Source of the DNA: Ignavibacteriota bacterium
Lineage (GTDB): Bacteria; Bacteroidota; Ignavibacteria; Palsa-1295
Assembly: GCA_963787835.1 (NCBI GenBank)
Contig: CAWBEI010000002.1
Span: forward strand, 416,001 to 480,000
Direction of reading: 5' to 3'
DNA length: 64,000 bases
Numbering within the stretch: position 1 is the stretch's first letter; each line of letters starts with the position of its first letter. The position numbers were made by a program, and so were the translations under genes. Positions 1,319 through 29,723 of this stretch are shown in pieces. The notes below the pieces were generated by a model. The model was not told the DNA's origin. It ran no database searches and was given only the letters and a program-made list of their open reading frames with translations.

Positions 1319-1990
1319 ATGGCAGTTTTAGAAGCGAATAAATTATCCAAGCGGTTTGCGGTGCGGGGTCGGGTGGATGTCGAAGTATTTCGGGATCTGA
1401 CGTTTACGCTTAACGCGGGGGAGATCGTGGCACTCATCGGGCCATCGGGCGCCGGTAAGAGTACGCTGCTGCATTTGCTCGGTACTTTGGATAAACCGAG
1501 TGGCGGCGATGTGACGATCGAAGGGCAGAACGTCGCGAAGATGGAAGATAAAGCGCTCAGCGCATTTCGAAACGAGCGTATCGGGTTTATCTTTCAATTC
1601 CATCATTTACTGCCGGAATTCACCGCGCTGGAAAATGTTGCGATGCCGGCGATGATCGCCGGCAAGCCATTCGATGAAGTTCGCGATAGGGCTGCGGAAT
1701 TGCTGGGCAATGCCGGGTTAAAGGACCGGGTCGATCACCGGCCCTCGATGCTTTCCGGCGGTGAATCGCAGCGCGTTGCCGTAGCCCGGGCATTTATGAT
1801 GAAACCTGCGATCATCCTTGCCGATGAGCCAACCGGAAACCTCGATGCCCGTAACAGCGATATTCTGTTCAACCTCATTATGGATCTTTCGCGGGAGCAC
1901 CGGCAGACATTCCTTATCGCTACGCATAACCTGGACTTAGCCGCTCAGGCGGACCGGACGATGCACATGGAAAATGGTGAATTGAAATAA
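1319..1990 (+). CDS. lolD: Lipoprotein-releasing ABC transporter ATP-binding subunit
   Basis: Walker A GPSGAGKS, GFIFQFHHLLPEFTALENV, LSGGESQR, ADEPTGNLD. Confidence 0.85.
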   Translation: MAVLEANKLSKRFAVRGRVDVEVFRDLTFTLNAGEIVALIGPSGAGKSTLLHLLGTLDKPSGGDVTIEGQNVAKMEDKALSAFRNERIGFIFQFHHLLPEFTALENVAMPAMIAGKPFDEVRDRAAELLGNAGLKDRVDHRPSMLSGGESQRVAVARAFMMKPAIILADEPTGNLDARNSDILFNLIMDLSREHRQTFLIATHNLDLAAQADRTMHMENGELK

Positions 1991-2086
1991 AGGAACCGCT
2001 TGCAACTTTTTATTTTTTAGTTATAACAATTTCGTAATTTAGCCAAACAGATACTACATTAGCACTTTCTACAGTTCAACCATCTC

Positions 2087-2614
2087 ATGAAAATTACCGT
2101 CGCGATCCTCCTTCTATCCGCCTTTGTTTTTGCGTCATGCAATTCGAGCACAAGCACCAGCACTACCACGCCGACTGGTGGCAGCGGTGTGCCCTCTTCT
2201 TCCAACACCATGATCGTCACCTTCAACGGTACAACGGATACTCTGGTGGCTACGGCGGTCGATACCACTATTTCAGGTGTTAAGAATATTATCGTTGCAG
2301 GAGCAGGGACAGCCGGAATAGCCGTCGGCTTCACGCTTACAAATATAACGGCGACCGGTTCCTATAGCGTCGGGCCAATAAGCTTAAATGGTATCAGCCC
2401 TTATTTTGCAACGATGGATTGCGTAGATAAGTCAGGTAATACCTATCTTTCCCCAACGCCGGGAGCTGGGGTTGCCTCGGTTGGTACGATCACGATCACC
2501 TCCATTACGGACACCACGATTCAAGCAACCTTCAATGCATCGCCGCTGACACTTCGGAATGGAACCACAACGGTTTCGCTCACGAACGGCGGAGTATATG
2601 CAAAATTCTATTGA
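2087..2614 (+). CDS. Hypothetical Thr/Ser-rich lipoprotein
   Basis: Signal peptide with lipobox FASC; beta-rich body. Confidence 0.75.
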   Translation: MKITVAILLLSAFVFASCNSSTSTSTTTPTGGSGVPSSSNTMIVTFNGTTDTLVATAVDTTISGVKNIIVAGAGTAGIAVGFTLTNITATGSYSVGPISLNGISPYFATMDCVDKSGNTYLSPTPGAGVASVGTITITSITDTTIQATFNASPLTLRNGTTTVSLTNGGVYAKFY

Positions 2615-2704
2615 GAAAATTGTAAACGTGCGGGATTGGGAAGCATGGAACGAGATGAATCCATGCAAAGTTAACTCAAACCTCACGTTTCCGAAGAGAT
2701 AATT

Positions 2705-3091
2705 ATGGCAAATCAGACTGCAACCCCCGTTCGACCAGCACGCCCCACGCCGCGCCAAACCCCAGGCCGCGCCACATCCAGCCGCCCAGCCCCTGGCCGA
2801 GCACGAGGGAAAAGCACGGATAATACTCCGGTTCGGCAATTTCAAATGCCGTTCGATGCAAAGAACATGCGCATCATCGCCCTTGGCATTGCAGTGATCG
2901 TGATCGGGTACATCGTGATGTATGTCAGCCCTGTGATGAGCGATATGGCACTGACGGTCAGCCCGATCCTGTTACTGCTCGGTTATTGCGTGATCGTGCC
3001 GATGGGAATTATGGCAGGAATGCGAAAAAAGAAATCTTCGGTTCCCGAACTGTCCGAGCCGACGACCAACAGGGCGGCGTCTCTAAATTAA
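2705..3091 (+). CDS. Small two-TM membrane protein (DUF3098-like)
   Basis: PFDAKNMRIIALGIAVIVIGYIVM...LTVSPILLLLGY pattern after a disordered N-terminus. Confidence 0.65.
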   Translation: MANQTATPVRPARPTPRQTPGRATSSRPAPGRARGKSTDNTPVRQFQMPFDAKNMRIIALGIAVIVIGYIVMYVSPVMSDMALTVSPILLLLGYCVIVPMGIMAGMRKKKSSVPELSEPTTNRAASLN

Positions 3092-3613
3092 TCAGGAAGA
3101 AGTTCCGTAGGTTTCGAGGAGTCTGACTCGAAGCTCGTTCTTTGAAATATCGATCTTCCGGACTTCTTCGCCGGCATTAGTGACGAGGTGCTCAGTGCCA
3201 TTCAGATCGAGCACGAAAACGTCACCGGCCGGCATATCGAGCACATTTTTTACGAGGCCGATCGTTAAGCCAGTCTCATCATCTACGACGGTCATTCCGA
3301 TGATTTCATCGTAGTAGGCTCGGCCGTTAGGAAGTTTCGGGCGTTCACTTTCGGGGATCAGTATTTCTGCATTGCGCAGGAACTCAGCAGCATCACGATC
3401 ATCGACCCCTTCGATTTTTAGAAGAATTCCAGTGGGGAGAAGTCGAACAGAACTAACGGATCGCTCTAACATTTCACCAGAAGACATCCGAAGCAGAACA
3501 CGCTTCAGCTTTTGAAATCGGCGGTCATCATGGGAAAAACTTTGAATTGATACTTCGCCGCGAATGCCATGTGGCTTTCCGATGCGAGCTATAAGGACAA
3601 GATCTTCGTTCAC
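3092..3613 (-). CDS. rimM: 16S rRNA processing protein RimM
   Basis: IARIGKPHGIRGEV, GVDDRDAAEFLRN, YYDEIIGMTV. Confidence 0.95.
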   Translation of the reverse strand: MNEDLVLIARIGKPHGIRGEVSIQSFSHDDRRFQKLKRVLLRMSSGEMLERSVSSVRLLPTGILLKIEGVDDRDAAEFLRNAEILIPESERPKLPNGRAYYDEIIGMTVVDDETGLTIGLVKNVLDMPAGDVFVLDLNGTEHLVTNAGEEVRKIDISKNELRVRLLETYGTSS

Positions 3614-23070: not shown

Positions 23071-23937
23071 TCAGTTCGTCTCAGAGACCTCAAATATGAT
23101 ATTGCCACCCGCGATCTTCCCTTTCCGGGCGATCTCTTCTTTGCACCGGCTGCAAATAATGACCTCATCATTCTTATGTTGAACTTCTTCGATCAGCCCG
23201 GAAACGAAGATGGCAGAAGGAACCGCGAAGACCCCCAGGCCGCAAAATGCCGTGATCACTGCGAACACCTTTCCCCACGGCGTGATGGGTGTCATGTCTC
23301 CGGGAACCTTCGAAAGCGTCGCCGCTGCCCACCAGAACGATCTGGGAATACTCGAGAATATCTTCGGTTGCGCCGTGTGCTCGATGTAATACATCACCGT
23401 AGAAGAGAATATCAGAATGAGAAGGAGCACAAAAAATGCTGTCGCGATCTCGGATTTTTTCGCCTGAAACACGCGGTTCAACGTGGCAAGGGAGGCGGAA
23501 TACTGGCCGATCTTGAAAACACGCGCAAGACGTATGAGTCGAAACATTCGAATGAACCGCAGGTCGAACGGAAGCAACAGCGGAAGATAGAACGGAAGGA
23601 CTGCGAATAAGTCGATCAGTGCGAACGGAGTAGCGATATAGCGCAACCTCCCGACGATCGGGTGGGAGTATTTTTCATCCTCCACGATCGACCACAGCCG
23701 AAGAAGATATTCTACGGAAAATAAGCTTACCGTGATGATCTCCAGAACATAAAACAGCGTCTCATATTTCTCCGCAATGGTAACTTCCGATTCCAGGATC
23801 ACCGAGAGAACGCTCAGGCTAATGAGGCTTGCGATGAAGATACGAACAAACCGTTGACCTTTGTGTTCAAGATCGGAACCAAATAGTAGTTCGTGAACAC
23901 GGTGACGCGCCCGCAATAGTGAAGATTCTTCCGGCAT
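23071..23937 (-). CDS. Voltage-gated-like 6TM ion channel (Ion_trans) with an atypical filter
   Basis: LFSVEYLLRLW, LIDLFAVLPFY, S4 LRFIRMFRLIRLARVFK, pore helix FSSIPRSFWW; filter TLSKVPGD instead of TTVGYGD. Confidence 0.9.
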   Translation of the reverse strand: MPEESSLLRARHRVHELLFGSDLEHKGQRFVRIFIASLISLSVLSVILESEVTIAEKYETLFYVLEIITVSLFSVEYLLRLWSIVEDEKYSHPIVGRLRYIATPFALIDLFAVLPFYLPLLLPFDLRFIRMFRLIRLARVFKIGQYSASLATLNRVFQAKKSEIATAFFVLLLILIFSSTVMYYIEHTAQPKIFSSIPRSFWWAAATLSKVPGDMTPITPWGKVFAVITAFCGLGVFAVPSAIFVSGLIEEVQHKNDEVIICSRCKEEIARKGKIAGGNIIFEVSETN

Positions 23938-23964
23938 GGATATACTGAACGCTTTTTCTATAGT

Positions 23965-25905
23965 TCAGGCTCCTTTGGGTACTTCGAGCGGCCGGTCGCG
24001 ATGCATCAGGATCCAGTCGCCGTTTTCGATAAGGGCTTCGCGGCCGAGTTCAGCGACGAACGCACGAGCGTCCGCAAGCCGGTCTTCACCAAGCAGTTTT
24101 TCAAGATGCACGGTCGCGCGATGGTAGAACACGCTCATGCGGTCGTATTGACGCTTATGTTCAGCAAGCGCATTTTTTTGTAGGTAGCTATGCAATACTG
24201 CGGCTAATACAGGAAAGACACCAATGCCAAGCAGAATATATTCATTAGGATGGCGGTACAAGAACGCCTGCACTGCCGCAAGCAGAAGCGCACCAATGAA
24301 CAACGCCATGATACGCTTTTCCTGAACATGAAGGATCCGGTGATCGCGATGAGCGGATTTCGCAAAATATTTCGCCTGATCTTCGACCCAATGTTTCAGA
24401 ACCAATTTCAAGTGTTCGCGCTCGGTGTCCCTGTCCTCCGGTGCGGACATATCGGACGCATGCGGGGTGCTTTCGATGGTTCCCGCACGGATCGCATTGC
24501 GGATCCAGTCGAGTTCGCTGCGCTGCTTGCGCATGTAGAAATCTGCTACGGAATCCTGAACGCCAGCCAATTTCCAGAAAAATTGTACTCGCAAACCCTC
24601 CGCAAGGGCGCGGTAATCGAGGTATCTGGTTTGGAACCCGTGCTGTTCCGCCCAGTAATACACGACGAACGATAAGAAGAACATTCCCAGATACAACCCG
24701 AGCATCACCGGCTCCTGAAAAAGGCCGGAGTACATTTCATAGAATAGCGCGGCAAAGAACACGAAGGTCAGAAGCAGTTGCAGCGTTGTTTTCGTGCGTC
24801 GCTGAAAGCGTTGCGAAAGCACATCGGCGATCGCATAAAAATCGAGATCTTCGCGGAGCGTGAGCGGTAATTCAGCCTTGTGCTCGCCCTTCGCGTGCTG
24901 TTCTCCTTTATGATGATGCCGTTTCCGTTTATGTCCAACGAGATGGTGGACGCGTGTGGGCAATACGTATTCCTTGCTCGCGCGGAAATGCTCTTTTAAT
25001 TCTTCAGAATATTTGATCGCGTCCGTGTTGAACGTTTCCATGCGCTCATAGACATCATGATACGCTTTTTCGGCATCTGCGCGGGCCGGGAAACCGGTGG
25101 GATAGATCCGGCGCGTCGTAAACGCGCGAGCCGGGTGCGGATTGATCCTGCGCGGCGTGACGATATGATAGACCGGGCCGGTATCCGGTGCATCGAGCTC
25201 GCTATGCGCCTTCGCGAACGGCTCAGGAACCCCTTCGAGCTTAAACTGCACCACTTGCGACGTGCCACCGATCAAATTCAGTTCCACGCCGTCCCACAGC
25301 GCAATAAGGATCGCGCTGCGGCTGGCAAGATACGCACCAACGAGCGCATACTGCTGCTCGCGAAATAAGCCGTGCTCCTGAATATCCTCGCGGGTAAGCC
25401 CCGGCATGATCGGAAGCTCGGTGTAGTATTCGGCACGTTCGATCAAGCGGTGAAATTCTTCGAGGGATGCCGCATCGAAATCCGTTTCGTAAAGTTCGGC
25501 GGGCATGGGCAGCACTACGGCAAGGCGCATTCCGGCTTCGAGCGCGATGCGAGCCACCAAGCGGTCGGCGCCATCGGCAAGCGCGGAGAGCAGCGTGAGC
25601 GGAGTCGAGGGATACGTCTTCCGCAAATACGAAAGCTCAGCAATAACAAGTTCCGTGAGCCGGGGAAGGTCTTCCTTGCAAAGATCGCGGTGACCTGTTA
25701 CGCCAACGATAAGCGGCAGCGGCCCCACTTCGCCGGTTCCCTGCGTGCCCCATCGCAACGAGTGCAGGGTATGATGATGCGGATGCAAGAGTTCATCGTC
25801 GATGAACTGCTCCACCGGGGATTCGGTGACCGAGGCAGCGCCACCGGGATGGGTACCGTTCATCCCGGTTAATAGCGTAGCCGGCTCGTTAGAGGTTATT
25901 TCCAT
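23965..25905 (-). CDS. SLOG (YspA/DUF1273-like) domain fused to two SLATT-like 2TM modules
   Basis: VGVTGHR, SALADGAD, IALWDG...GGT; two hydrophobic helix pairs followed by YLDYRALAEGLR and QYDRM...EALIENGDW. Confidence 0.75.
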   Translation of the reverse strand: MEITSNEPATLLTGMNGTHPGGAASVTESPVEQFIDDELLHPHHHTLHSLRWGTQGTGEVGPLPLIVGVTGHRDLCKEDLPRLTELVIAELSYLRKTYPSTPLTLLSALADGADRLVARIALEAGMRLAVVLPMPAELYETDFDAASLEEFHRLIERAEYYTELPIMPGLTREDIQEHGLFREQQYALVGAYLASRSAILIALWDGVELNLIGGTSQVVQFKLEGVPEPFAKAHSELDAPDTGPVYHIVTPRRINPHPARAFTTRRIYPTGFPARADAEKAYHDVYERMETFNTDAIKYSEELKEHFRASKEYVLPTRVHHLVGHKRKRHHHKGEQHAKGEHKAELPLTLREDLDFYAIADVLSQRFQRRTKTTLQLLLTFVFFAALFYEMYSGLFQEPVMLGLYLGMFFLSFVVYYWAEQHGFQTRYLDYRALAEGLRVQFFWKLAGVQDSVADFYMRKQRSELDWIRNAIRAGTIESTPHASDMSAPEDRDTEREHLKLVLKHWVEDQAKYFAKSAHRDHRILHVQEKRIMALFIGALLLAAVQAFLYRHPNEYILLGIGVFPVLAAVLHSYLQKNALAEHKRQYDRMSVFYHRATVHLEKLLGEDRLADARAFVAELGREALIENGDWILMHRDRPLEVPKGA

Positions 25906-25909
25906 TATA

Positions 25910-25917
25910 CGAAGTTA
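25910..25917 (-). promoter_or_regulatory. Putative -7 promoter element, implying a near-leaderless transcript
   Basis: Minus strand TAACTTCG (TAnnTTTG-like), 4 nt from ATG 25905. Confidence 0.35.
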
Positions 25918-25995
25918 CGAAAATAATAGTTAGGTGGTGCAACAAACATATTTCTATTGTGCTATTACACCTTATTATTTTCATTAACAGTATTC

Positions 25996-26026
25996 TTGAC
26001 AAAGCAACAAAATTGGCGTAAGTTTG
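25996..26026 (+). promoter_or_regulatory. Putative promoter for ORF 26168
   Basis: TTGACA at 25996 and TAAGTTTG at 26019. Confidence 0.5.
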
Positions 26027-26167
26027 TATAGAGCGGTTGCAATTTGTCACCCAAAATTTCCTTTTTCGATCGCTCGAGCTCTGTTGAGACTGTGGGAATA
26101 TGTAGTTTGGGTTGCCAACGGCACGGCGGACGTTCCGCCGGGTTTACTTTATTCTTGAAATACACGT

Positions 26168-26482
26168 ATGGGTTACACATGGACAAAAAAAAATGCGACC
26201 ACCGTTGAGATGGTTGCTACAACCGCTGCAGCTCCCGGTATCACCGTCTCCTGGCAAACAACAAATGGATGGACCGTCAATGCAGGCGGTCAATCATCGA
26301 GCACGTCACCAATTGTACTTCCCGGCACGGGGACTTATGAGCTCACCGTCTCGAATAGTGGGAGTCAAAATGTTTCCTCCGGCCCCAACCCAACCTCGGG
26401 TCAGAATTCGGTCGTTAGCTTCGGGGGAGGGCAAGTAGGAACTATAACACTTAATCTAGAAGGCAATCCTATGGGCACATAA
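26168..26482 (+). CDS. Small Thr/Ser/Gly-rich hypothetical beta-protein with no signal peptide
   Basis: 104-aa ATG ORF filling the intergenic gap, with an upstream promoter-like motif. Confidence 0.6.
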   Translation: MGYTWTKKNATTVEMVATTAAAPGITVSWQTTNGWTVNAGGQSSSTSPIVLPGTGTYELTVSNSGSQNVSSGPNPTSGQNSVVSFGGGQVGTITLNLEGNPMGT

Positions 26483-26606
26483 ACCCAATTGGGATCTGCC
26501 GGTGCGCTCTTTCTTGTCTGCCGTCGATAAAACCCTCGACACTGGGGATGTCAATGATGGTTATTTTGAGAATAGGAACCCGTACTTCAGAATTGGAGGC
26601 GGGTTC

Positions 26607-29600
26607 CTATGTATTCATAATTCCCAATTTTTCACGCATTTCCTCCAACCGCTTCTTCGCCCTTATTGCATCCGGATTTCCGGAACCATACGTCTTCTCG
26701 TAGTAGGGAAGATATTTTTCGTAGTAGGGAATCGCTTGCTCATAATTTCCCTCGAGATAATACATATAGCCAATACCAACGCCGGAAGTAAATATCACGG
26801 GCAACAACGGCCCTGGCCTGTTTCTTGCGGACTCGACGACGGACTCGTATAGCGAACGTGCTCCGGGAATATCATTGATCCCCAATTTCGCGTTTGCCAT
26901 TTGTTGCCTGCAAATACAGGTTTGTTTATGATAAGGACCAAGAGTTCCCATGTAGATCGTTTCTGCTTCCCGTAATTCCGTTAATGCTTCTGAAAACCTA
27001 CTTGTTCGATTGAAATATGCTGCAAGTTGGGTCTTGGCTTGGGCCATAGCAGTATGTGATGCTCCAAAATGTTCTGAAACAATCCCAGCAAACCGCCGGA
27101 AATAGTCTTCTGCCTCAGCAAATTTAGATGCATTGGTAAGAAGGGAGCCTAAGCTGTTATACCGAGGCGATATTTCTCTGCTTCGTGGGCCATATAGTTC
27201 CGCACATTCGTCAATTGATTTCCGAAGGATCTTTTCGGCTTCTTCGATCCTTCCGAGATGATATAGTGCATAGAATATATGATCGAGAATCTCTACTCGA
27301 TTTTTTGGGAACGGAAGTATTGCCGGGTCATTGACCATTTTTTCAGATCGTTCGAGAGCAATATCGTATTTCCCAAGATTGTTAAGAATAAGAATTTGTT
27401 TTTCACGCAATTCAAGCTGTAGCTTCGTCTCCATTGCAAGTTTTTCAACCTGCGGATATCCTGCGCCGAATACCTCGTCGGCTCGCGTATATTCGGAGGC
27501 AAGCACGAGGAGTTCGATCGCATTCGTAAAAGCTTGAACGACCGTATTGGAGTTTAGGCCGGAACCCATAAGGCGAGGAATGTATTCGGCATCGATCTCG
27601 ACGTTTCCGAATTCGCGCCAATATCCGAGTGCTTCATATCGCTCGTGATCGGTTTCAAGCAGGGCAAGCATCCCTGGTTCGAGCAGTGAACGCTTCAAGG
27701 CATCGTGCTCCCCGGCAGCCTGCCACTGCCACGGTTCTTCCGCTCGCCGGCGTTCGCCGAATTCTCGCGTTGAAAAATATCTTCCGATGTGGGCATGGGA
27801 AGCTTTTTTCTCCTTCTCCTCGGGCACGTACCGCTGCTCGATCGCCTCCCGCAAAAAGTTATGGAAGAAGGAATGGAAGCCTTCTCGAACCATCAGGTGG
27901 TATTCCATCGCGATCATCAGTTCCGAAAGCGCCATACGGGGCTTGCCGGTGATCTCCATCAGTTCCGCCTCCGACAGCCCATGACGGGACGCCCAGATGG
28001 CTGTCATCACCGTGCGAACAGATTCCTCGCCGTGGTCGCGCTCTAAGCGGGCCAGCACCTTCTGGAATAGCTCCCGTTCATCGGCACTACCCAGATAATC
28101 CGCAAGGTGTTCATGCAAGGATTGGTGATGGCCGAAGATGCGCAGTTCTTCCAACACCGTTCGTAAAAAGAGCGGGCTCGATGATTTGGGATCGGATGAA
28201 AGCGTGTGAAGATCTTTTTGCGGCAGCGATTTACGATACCGTTTCAGGAAATTGCTCGCAATAGCTTCCCGCTGATGCTCGGTGAGCGACTGAAGTTCCA
28301 GCTCGTTCCAGTTCCGTTTGCGAAGCTGTTCGAGCGGCACACTGTCCGCCGTCGTCGAAAGCACGAGCCGAACGTTCGGTGGGATGAACTCCGGCAGCCA
28401 GTGCATTTCCGTCGCAACACCGGTAAGCTGGTTGAGGGCATCAATGAAGAGGACCAGCTTATCCGTCTCCCCCTCCTTAAGGAGGAGGGGGTTGGGGGGC
28501 GGTTCCTGCGCATCGAAAAAACCACCCCCTGCCCCCTCCTTCTTTAGGAGGGGGGTGCTTCCAACTTTCGCCAGCCAGACTGGGAACTCCTCGCGAAGTG
28601 TGGTATCATCCGTTGGAACGGTTTCGGAAAGCGCATATCGCTCTTTGATCTCCATCATGACCTGACGGATGACATCTTCGGGATCGCTTCCCTCTGCCGC
28701 ACCGATAAAATGCTGCACGACGAATGCATTCGGGTTCTGCGTTTGATATTCATGCGCCAAATGAGACATCAGCGCGCTCTTCCCCAAACCTGATCGTCCC
28801 CAAATGACGAGCGGGGGCCCATCGGACTCCACATGTTTGACGAACGCGTCATAATATGCGGGATTCGCCACATAGGCTCGCCTGCGGTTGATCGAAAAAG
28901 CTTCGTGCTCGATGCGCTCACGTTCGAGCGGCGTCAGATCGCGTTTGGCAGGGAAATGCCGATCGAGAATCGAAATTATATCCTGAAACACCAGCTCGCC
29001 AAGTTCTTCGGGATCGTTGAAACGGCGGTAGGGAACTCCGGTGGATTGGAGGGTTTCTTTGAGAGTGGATAACCCTTTGGACGCTATGGACTTGTTGGAC
29101 AGAGTGGTGTCCAAATTGTCCATGGCGTCCATCACGTCCACCGAACCGCCAAGCACCTGTTCATAAAAAAAAGAAGAATCATTTTTTTCCAGGAGTGCGC
29201 CATGTGCGAACTCCATCTCGATAATGCTCTTTTCTTTGGCGGCAAAATCCCGGAGCCACGGAAATTCTTTCAGGATCTCCCTATCCTTCTCGATCTCAGT
29301 AATACCAGGGACCCATCCATACCTCGAACCAATGATGCCTATAAAATAGGGACGGCAGCGGTCGATCTCCTCTAAACAAATGCGGATCGTTTTTCCCGTG
29401 CGTGATTCGTCTTCTGTGATGCCCCACCGCAGGTCGATCTCGGTGAACTCCACGCCACGCTCCCGGCATTCTTTTCGTATCCGGGGAAATACTTTTTTGA
29501 CAAGCTGCTCCCGTTCCGGCTGTAGATCCCGGAACGTCGAGGAGACGAACAGGCGGAGTTCGTTCTTTCGCGCTTCGCGGCTGTGCTGGTGATCCGGCAT
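26607..29600 (-). CDS. DUF4062 (TIR-like)-STAND/NACHT-like NTPase-TPR protein (NPHP3/TEP1-like architecture)
   Basis: LFVSSTFRDLQPERE, IDLRWGI, ICLEEIDRCRPYFIGIIGSRYGW; Walker A GRSGLGKS; Walker B VLFIDALNQL; SPLFL; C-terminal TPRs; start placed at ATG 29600. Confidence 0.9.
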   Translation of the reverse strand: MPDHQHSREARKNELRLFVSSTFRDLQPEREQLVKKVFPRIRKECRERGVEFTEIDLRWGITEDESRTGKTIRICLEEIDRCRPYFIGIIGSRYGWVPGITEIEKDREILKEFPWLRDFAAKEKSIIEMEFAHGALLEKNDSSFFYEQVLGGSVDVMDAMDNLDTTLSNKSIASKGLSTLKETLQSTGVPYRRFNDPEELGELVFQDIISILDRHFPAKRDLTPLERERIEHEAFSINRRRAYVANPAYYDAFVKHVESDGPPLVIWGRSGLGKSALMSHLAHEYQTQNPNAFVVQHFIGAAEGSDPEDVIRQVMMEIKERYALSETVPTDDTTLREEFPVWLAKVGSTPLLKKEGAGGGFFDAQEPPPNPLLLKEGETDKLVLFIDALNQLTGVATEMHWLPEFIPPNVRLVLSTTADSVPLEQLRKRNWNELELQSLTEHQREAIASNFLKRYRKSLPQKDLHTLSSDPKSSSPLFLRTVLEELRIFGHHQSLHEHLADYLGSADERELFQKVLARLERDHGEESVRTVMTAIWASRHGLSEAELMEITGKPRMALSELMIAMEYHLMVREGFHSFFHNFLREAIEQRYVPEEKEKKASHAHIGRYFSTREFGERRRAEEPWQWQAAGEHDALKRSLLEPGMLALLETDHERYEALGYWREFGNVEIDAEYIPRLMGSGLNSNTVVQAFTNAIELLVLASEYTRADEVFGAGYPQVEKLAMETKLQLELREKQILILNNLGKYDIALERSEKMVNDPAILPFPKNRVEILDHIFYALYHLGRIEEAEKILRKSIDECAELYGPRSREISPRYNSLGSLLTNASKFAEAEDYFRRFAGIVSEHFGASHTAMAQAKTQLAAYFNRTSRFSEALTELREAETIYMGTLGPYHKQTCICRQQMANAKLGINDIPGARSLYESVVESARNRPGPLLPVIFTSGVGIGYMYYLEGNYEQAIPYYEKYLPYYEKTYGSGNPDAIRAKKRLEEMREKLGIMNT
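28467..28557. repeat. C/G-run palindromic doublet inserted in frame in the STAND domain
   Basis: CCCCTCCTTAAGGAGGAGGGGGTTGGGGGGCGGTT and inverted AACCACCCCCTGCCCCCTCCTTCTTTAGGAGGGG. Confidence 0.85.
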
Positions 29601-29639: not shown

Positions 29640-29723
29640 CAACAATTACACAGAATTGCCGTAGAGTGGTGGAATACGCCCCTCACGAACGAAGTGATTT
29701 TTCAGGGCGTTAGCGGATTAGCC

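Follow-up and report, generated by a model that had tools for sequence, protein, structure and literature searches.

A candidate NAD-signalling pair in an Ignavibacteriota bacterium: a NIR(DUF4062)-NACHT-TPR receptor beside a SLOG protein with four transmembrane helices

The DUF4062 domain was renamed NIR in three 2026 preprints (including 10.64898/2026.09.04.749371 and 10.64898/2026.05.01.722283), where it was described as an NADase whose products are linear ADP-ribose and nicotinamide. The 2026 DUF4062 preprints reported depletion of nicotinamide adenine dinucleotide (NAD) by NIR in Avs2, Swarozyc, Vulcan, Vesta, Evangelion, and human TEP1. Human NWD1, NWD2, and NPHP3 are reported to be inactive as NADases in vitro. 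In addition, one of the preprints showed that DUF4062 clusters apart from TIR, and one speculated that some NIRs may make signals. The three 2026 DUF4062 preprints mention neither SLOG nor SLATT, and our literature search turned up no paper joining DUF4062 with SLOG. Here, we describe a stretch of 64,000 nucleotides from an Ignavibacteriota bacterium (contig CAWBEI010000002.1, positions 416,001 to 480,000; hereafter the window), in which the gene of a NIR-NACHT-TPR receptor (P0001) is the neighbour of the gene of a protein (P0002) that joins a SLOG domain to four transmembrane (TM) helices (SLOG-4TM). Judging from gene neighbourhoods, P0001–P0002 likely works like Thoeris-type signalling yet fails Thoeris membership. 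What is new is a co-inherited pair of SLOG-4TM and NIR-NLR genes in two families, a pattern of many sensors with one unlinked effector, and the removal of a neighbouring ion channel (P0003) from the system.

P0001 has the same composition as the NIR NLR-like proteins (PsAvs2-NIR, bacterial NIR-NLRs, and human TEP1), namely an N-terminal DUF4062 with a Glu equivalent to TEP1 E1008, a STAND/NACHT NTPase, and C-terminal TPRs. However, those proteins are described as self-sufficient NAD-depleting effectors (10.64898/2026.09.04.749371; 10.64898/2026.05.01.722283), unlike the relay proposed here. In the Thoeris survey (10.64898/2025.12.03.692087), which gave 29 predicted types and discarded the TIRs in Avs proteins, an NAD-derived signal is read by SLOG (types I and III) or by a SLATT membrane effector (type VII, cyclic ADP-ribose [cADPR]), and this is the likeness to our pair. 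Nevertheless, the signal enzyme here is a NIR within an NLR, with no TIR in P0001, and the window lacks a conserved enzyme-effector operon; only a paralogous SLOG-to-NIR pair is of that kind. P0002 fuses a YpsA-like SLOG to two SLATT modules without SIR2 and is mostly unlinked in this family, whereas ThsA of type I fuses SIR2 to a ThsA-type SLOG. Compared with the type VII effector ThsH, P0002 has SLATT_1 and SLATT_3 matches under the cut-off, four TM helices, and an extra SLOG head. Type X has a conserved TIR and ion channel, whereas the window channel has no adjacent TIR and does not recur as a conserved neighbour of SLOG or NIR genes. Furthermore, P0002 resembles TRPM2, in which a SLOG domain is also joined to a membrane module and the ligand is the known NIR product (PMC13143021, PMC13060097).

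Residues 16–101 of P0001 matched DUF4062 (PF13271; E = 1.4e-14, over the cut-off), and residues 264–453 matched NACHT (E = 8e-6, just under the Pfam cut-off). The other Pfam matches were HTH_NWD1 (winged helix) and TPRs including TPR_12, and a Walker B-like LVLFID lies at residues 382–387. Pfam gave no TIR match in P0001, and neither PADLOC (version of 2023) nor NCBIfam gave an Avs match. The TEP1 NIR structure 11gz matched P0001 at E = 8.6e-23, and under a single numbering offset (893), TEP1 R908, R976, and the catalytic E1008 correspond to P0001 R24, R93, and E130. E130 (codon 29213–29211; local sequence SIIEMEF) was invariant in a 15-row alignment, and a Glu was present at this position in 43 of the 43 homologs aligned there (45 examined). 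By equivalence with TEP1, the predicted catalytic Glu of P0001 is E130. A sequence-only reading of the window had proposed a Glu in CLEEID as the candidate catalytic residue, but the CLEEID glutamates (E77/E78) do not have this role. The P0001 reading frame stays open up to a TTG at 29645.

The regions of P0001 differed in conservation. For instance, identity to P0001 among 14 same-genus orthologous rows was 67–80% in NIR and 62–92% in NACHT, but only 12–52% in the TPR region. The TPR region also had a lower guanine-cytosine (GC) content (0.44, and 0.42 at third codon positions) than the rest of the gene (0.54 and 0.64). Because TPR identity is low beside conserved NIR and NACHT and the GC of the TPR DNA is lower, the TPR region has apparently been swapped between receptors. 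In a protein of family f4, NIR was 45% but the TPR region 51% identical to P0001. In addition, the window's genome (G000) contains a second NIR-NACHT-TPR paralog split across two reading frames by a frameshift or an assembly error (C3:188427-191241, L034), and a stand-alone 214-aa NIR gene that retains the catalytic Glu and whose neighbours are housekeeping genes and genes resembling those of cytochrome c maturation (C5:217229-217873; L002 1483-2127). The NIR-NLR ortholog is met at its 3' end by a convergent peptidase C39-like gene, together with a partner gene, in L116 (7035-8543), L175, L178, and L180.

The Pfam matches of P0002 (YAcAr SLOG, SLATT_3, and SLATT_1) were weak, each under its own cut-off. 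However, the SLOG fold was seen in a confident structure model, with the conserved GH..., GAD, and GGT loops of YpsA-like SLOG, and four hydrophobic helices were found at residues 377–395, 400–418, 532–550, and 553–571. The sequence-only reading had described three co-oriented genes with a DUF4062-NTPase-TPR protein, a SLOG-SLATT protein, and a channel, and this part of it stands: P0001, P0002, and P0003 are all on the minus strand, and their domains were found by Pfam, the SLOG fold model, and the four TM helices. Elsewhere, SLOG-4TM genes broken by stops or frameshifts, as assembly errors or decay, occur in L048, L041, L044, L047, L062, L087, L097, and L109.

We proposed that the variable TPR region of P0001 would sense an invader protein, upon which P0001 may oligomerise through NACHT and the predicted NADase head would cleave NAD+. 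An ADP-ribose-type product (ADP-ribose or an isomer) would then bind the SLOG domain of P0002 and would open or destabilise its four-helix membrane module, a putative pore, and the infected cell would likely be stopped in a presumed anti-phage role. This chain, from TPR sensing to membrane damage, seems to us about evenly poised between right and wrong. By analogy, linear ADP-ribose is the likeliest ligand of P0002: it is the product of NIRs, and it binds at ~0.5 uM to MHR1/2, the SLOG-type domain through which TRPM2 is gated (PMC13143021, PMC13060097). A diffusible signal needs no gene linkage, so the single SLOG-4TM of the genome could respond to the remaining NIR and TIR proteins as well.

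To see the partners of SLOG-4TM, we surveyed the neighbourhoods of the best 80 of 304 loci, which by record title were 38 Kapabacteria-like and 42 others; close homologs carry the source label Candidatus Kapabacteria. The TIR profile was seeded from the SLOG-4TM neighbours themselves (most were confirmed by Pfam), the TIR-STING of L056 was added by hand, related genera recur, and L075 (genome G182) is unpublished. Outside Kapabacteria, a TIR or NIR gene lay within 2.5 kb in 26 of 42 loci (TIR 22, NIR 4), and in 17 of the 25 loci with both flanks of at least 2.5 kb. The density of these genes was 0.22 per kb within 1.5 kb versus 0.012 at 5–8 kb. TIR is the usual partner there and NIR the alternative, since DUF4062 was present in only 15 of 41 non-Kapabacteria genomes; in four further phyla, the gene next to SLOG-4TM is a NIR instead of a TIR gene. 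In addition, an RyR gene lay within 5 kb in 11 of the 42 loci. Because RyR proteins remove cADPR signals by degradation or sequestration (10.64898/2026.05.28.727677), these genes point, by analogy, to an ADPR-type messenger. RyDEP of the same preprint is a phage counter-defence enzyme, whereas the RyR genes here flank SLOG-4TM loci. In G000, a search with a custom-built profile found no RyR gene.

Several other arrangements were seen in these neighbourhoods. Small stand-alone RyR genes (~95 aa), which are candidate host-encoded signal quenchers, adjoin SLOG-4TM in L059, L070, L072, L084, L099, L058, and L056, and RyR is fused to TrkA_N (L094, L170) or to NTPase-like proteins (L068). Class III cyclase proteins adjoin SLOG-4TM in L067 (1698-3575, TPR-S-cyclase), L092 (9803-11710), and L080 (3896-7210, cyclase-STAND). 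Furthermore, L111 encodes a protein with two heads, TIR and DUF4062 (1942-3480); an nSTAND1-TPR gene and a SLOG-4TM gene lie downstream of it.

Within the window's class, NIR and SLOG-4TM co-occur at the genome level: among 151 class genomes, DUF4062 was present in 23 of the 25 with SLOG-4TM versus 12 of the 126 without it. In the 34 family genomes, SLOG-4TM was present in 33 and DUF4062 in 31. Two types of gene pair were recognised. In the first, SLOG-4TM is directly followed by NIR-NACHT (G019, G020, G022, and G049 of family f1; G093, G109, G117, and G132 of f4), and this pair formed a clade in each of two trees, with 7 full-length rows for SLOG and 8 rows for NIR-NACHT. Because its members group together in both trees, the pair is consistent with long co-inheritance in two families (8 genomes). 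The second type has the order of the window, NIR then SLOG, and was also found in G002, G009, and G014, with 1.0–2.8 kb of varying small genes in between.

A number of observations weigh against a relay between P0001 and P0002. Gene linkage is loose in the window's genus, where a P0001 ortholog was present in 10 of 14 relatives, and three of these 10 carriers have it no more than 3 kb from the SLOG gene; in the other seven it was not beside the SLOG gene (for example, ~29 kb off in G006 and >2 Mb in G001). In a metagenome locus with the same flanks and a 71% identical SLOG gene (L190), a secreted protein of 1617 aa occupies the slot. The window SLOG-4TM is nested inside a 27-row, mostly unlinked clade of the SLOG tree, and a TIR or NIR gene lay within 2.5 kb in only 5 of the 38 Kapabacteria-titled loci. 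Since slot contents vary, the ortholog is mostly elsewhere, and the SLOG clade is mostly unlinked, the adjacency of P0001 and P0002 is one local, unstable event. The wider evidence also has its limits: 24 of the 25 SLOG-4TM-positive class genomes come from two families and count as about two lineages rather than 25 tests, and in the non-Kapabacteria genomes, of which only 15 of 41 have DUF4062, TIR is the usual partner. According to the 2026 preprints, the characterised NIRs kill on their own, through NAD depletion and with no partner effector; the TEP1 NIR yields only the linear product and no other ADPR derivative, so a cyclic signal from NIR is disfavoured. G000 itself encodes seven TIR proteins as a possible alternative source of signal. 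PADLOC, by which a known defence system had been looked for, matched nothing, and there was no defence island in the flanks examined.

These points could also be read to mean that P0001, like the Avs2 that bears a NIR, is an NLR depleting NAD by itself, that P0002 answers other signals (e.g., those of TIR-TPR proteins), and that the two became neighbours through a variable insertion slot. Such a reading is possible, though we lean against it. It fits the NIR proteins that act alone (NIR-Avs2, Swarozyc, Vulcan, and Evangelion), the gap between the two genes with its opposing open reading frame (ORF) and separate promoter-like site, the varying slot, the TIR proteins of G000, and the finding that 10 of the 14 rows of the window's NIR clade are unlinked. 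However, it does not account for the second, old, co-inherited SLOG-to-NIR pair, for the NIR in TIR's place in four further phyla, or for the co-occurrence of NIR and SLOG-4TM across the class. Furthermore, an active NIR would in any case set free ADP-ribose, which is known to bind SLOG.

In family f4, the number of DUF4062 matches per genome was 33 in G027 (L183), 33 in G139 (L181), and 10 in G068 (L182). Three 20-kb stretches each contained six DUF4062 genes in tandem (TPRs in 7 of 7 tested). Each of the three genomes has a single SLOG-4TM match, around which ~8 kb on either side gave no NIR or TIR match. By their predicted domains, the DUF4062-NACHT-TPR tandem arrays are an expansion of a bacterial NLR repertoire. 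In G000, three NIR and seven TIR genes stand against a single SLOG-4TM. The presence of 10–33 NIR genes with one unlinked SLOG-4TM suggests a network of many sensors and one effector; shared ancestry could give the same picture. We tentatively propose, as a conjecture we would not yet bet on, that the NIRs of this NLR clade may be signal makers and not just NAD drains, and that the genome-wide NIR-NACHT-TPR repertoire, with its shuffled TPR sensors, may converge via linear ADP-ribose on one unlinked SLOG-4TM pore. Six of the G000 TIR proteins are ~600 aa long, some in tandem pairs and several with TPRs (C2:884603-888224, C2:988096-989937, C7:29277-33486, and C1:61274-63037).

Another explanation is that SLOG-4TM is a domesticated core gene of this family, a small-molecule-gated conductance reporting NAD/ADP-ribose status for housekeeping or stress rather than an anti-phage suicide effector. 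In P0002's family of genomes, it is nearly universal and usually occurs once per genome with housekeeping genes around it (dUTPase, FBPase, OmpH, and cyclophilin), its mobile-element matches were one partial viral and three weak plasmid ones, and YpsA itself is reported to have gained a role in cell division and stress. Nevertheless, outside the window's class the family adjoins TIR, RyR, STAND, and TPR-S-cyclase genes, the TPRs of its partners turn over fast, and NIR-NLRs expanded as tandem arrays in family f4. We regard the core-gene explanation as improbable.

The sequence-only reading had also made the channel P0003 a member of a three-gene system, in which the SLOG-SLATT pore would be opened by a NIR signal and depolarisation aided by the channel with its altered filter. 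P0003 does start 27 nt downstream of P0002, as claimed. Its filter is TLSKVPGD versus TMTTLGYGD in Kv4.3, so the TxGYG selectivity filter of K+-selective Kv channels is absent. Among 12 aligned channel copies, SKVPGD was confined to G000 and G002, and the filter was canonical in 7 of the 10 others. Between G000 and G002, the channel had a nonsynonymous rate (dN) of 0.03 and a synonymous rate (dS) of 0.27 (dN/dS ~0.11) and is under purifying selection; dS of the SLOG gene was 2.14. The channel genes (window 23071-23937 versus G002 L116 11822-12697) were 95% identical in lineages otherwise ~78% identical, and DNA identity was 91–97% in the channel but 61–79% in the SLOG gene, changing abruptly where one gene gives way to the other. 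Because its dS is far lower than that of the SLOG gene and the step is sharp, P0003 is likely a recent transfer into the slot, a passenger and not a conserved member of the module. No channel lay by the SLOG gene in any of the best 80 of 304 loci, and in further loci one did in 1 of 20 (L116–L135; G002), 0 of 20 (L151–L170), and 1 of 16 (L190–L205). In the last case (L199), the channel has a canonical filter and lies on the opposite strand, convergent to the SLOG-4TM gene. The close spacing, the purifying selection on a non-canonical filter, the L199 channel, and the pairing of TIR with an ion channel in type X Thoeris (10.64898/2025.12.03.692087) speak for the three-gene system, but against the rarity of the arrangement and the identity step they leave it very improbable. 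In G010:C7 (L184 7023-9204), a canonical-filter channel homolog is followed by a TIR gene, which resembles type X Thoeris.

The features of the locus are listed in Table 1. The ~700-bp gap with a divergent ORF noted earlier between P0001 and P0002 was confirmed (701 nt), and a promoter-like site precedes P0002; 14 promoter-like sites were found versus 6.0 ± 2.8 in shuffles. The genes flanking the trio encode housekeeping or secreted proteins.

Table 1. Coordinates of the genes and sequence features of the locus (positions in the window)
Feature	Position	Strand	Basis and remarks
P0001, NIR(DUF4062)-NACHT/STAND-winged helix-TPR receptor, 997 aa	26607..29600	-	Pfam; TEP1 NIR structure 11gz; predicted sensor and NADase
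NIR/DUF4062 NADase domain (predicted), P0001 residues 11-215, TEP1-like	28956..29570	-	Match to TEP1 structure
Walker A GRSGLGKS of P0001 NACHT, residues 268-275	28776..28799	-	Sequence
TPR sensor region (putative) of P0001, hypervariable	26610..27533	-	Ortholog identities; GC
P0002, SLOG-4TM, 646 aa; YpsA-like SLOG ~63-265 and two SLATT-like 2TM modules	23965..25905	-	Pfam, model, hydrophobicity; predicted signal-gated membrane effector
P0003, 6TM Kv-like channel, 288 aa, altered filter SKVPGD	23071..23937	-	Ion_trans E 9.5e-24; likely recent passenger
P0004, 104-aa ORF divergent from SLOG gene, slot filler	26168..26482	+	Single homolog, same place in G002; no family
Sigma70-like promoter match TTGTCA-17-AATAAT, 10/12	25974..26002	-	Upstream of SLOG gene; consensus match only

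Eukaryotic NLR networks use sensor-to-helper logic. If the conjecture of many sensors converging on one SLOG-4TM is true, this logic gains a bacterial counterpart, an NLR network in which many sensors share one executioner gated in the manner of TRPM2, and TEP1-like NIR domains gain a signalling role. The NADase nature of NIR was recognised no earlier than 2026, and all accounts so far describe a self-sufficient effector that depletes NAD. The locus and the tighter paralogous pair offer a two-gene test of NIR signalling and a candidate bacterial pore gated by linear ADP-ribose. Furthermore, systems in which dozens of NLR sensors depend on a single unlinked effector, if they exist, would escape defence searches that rely on operons.

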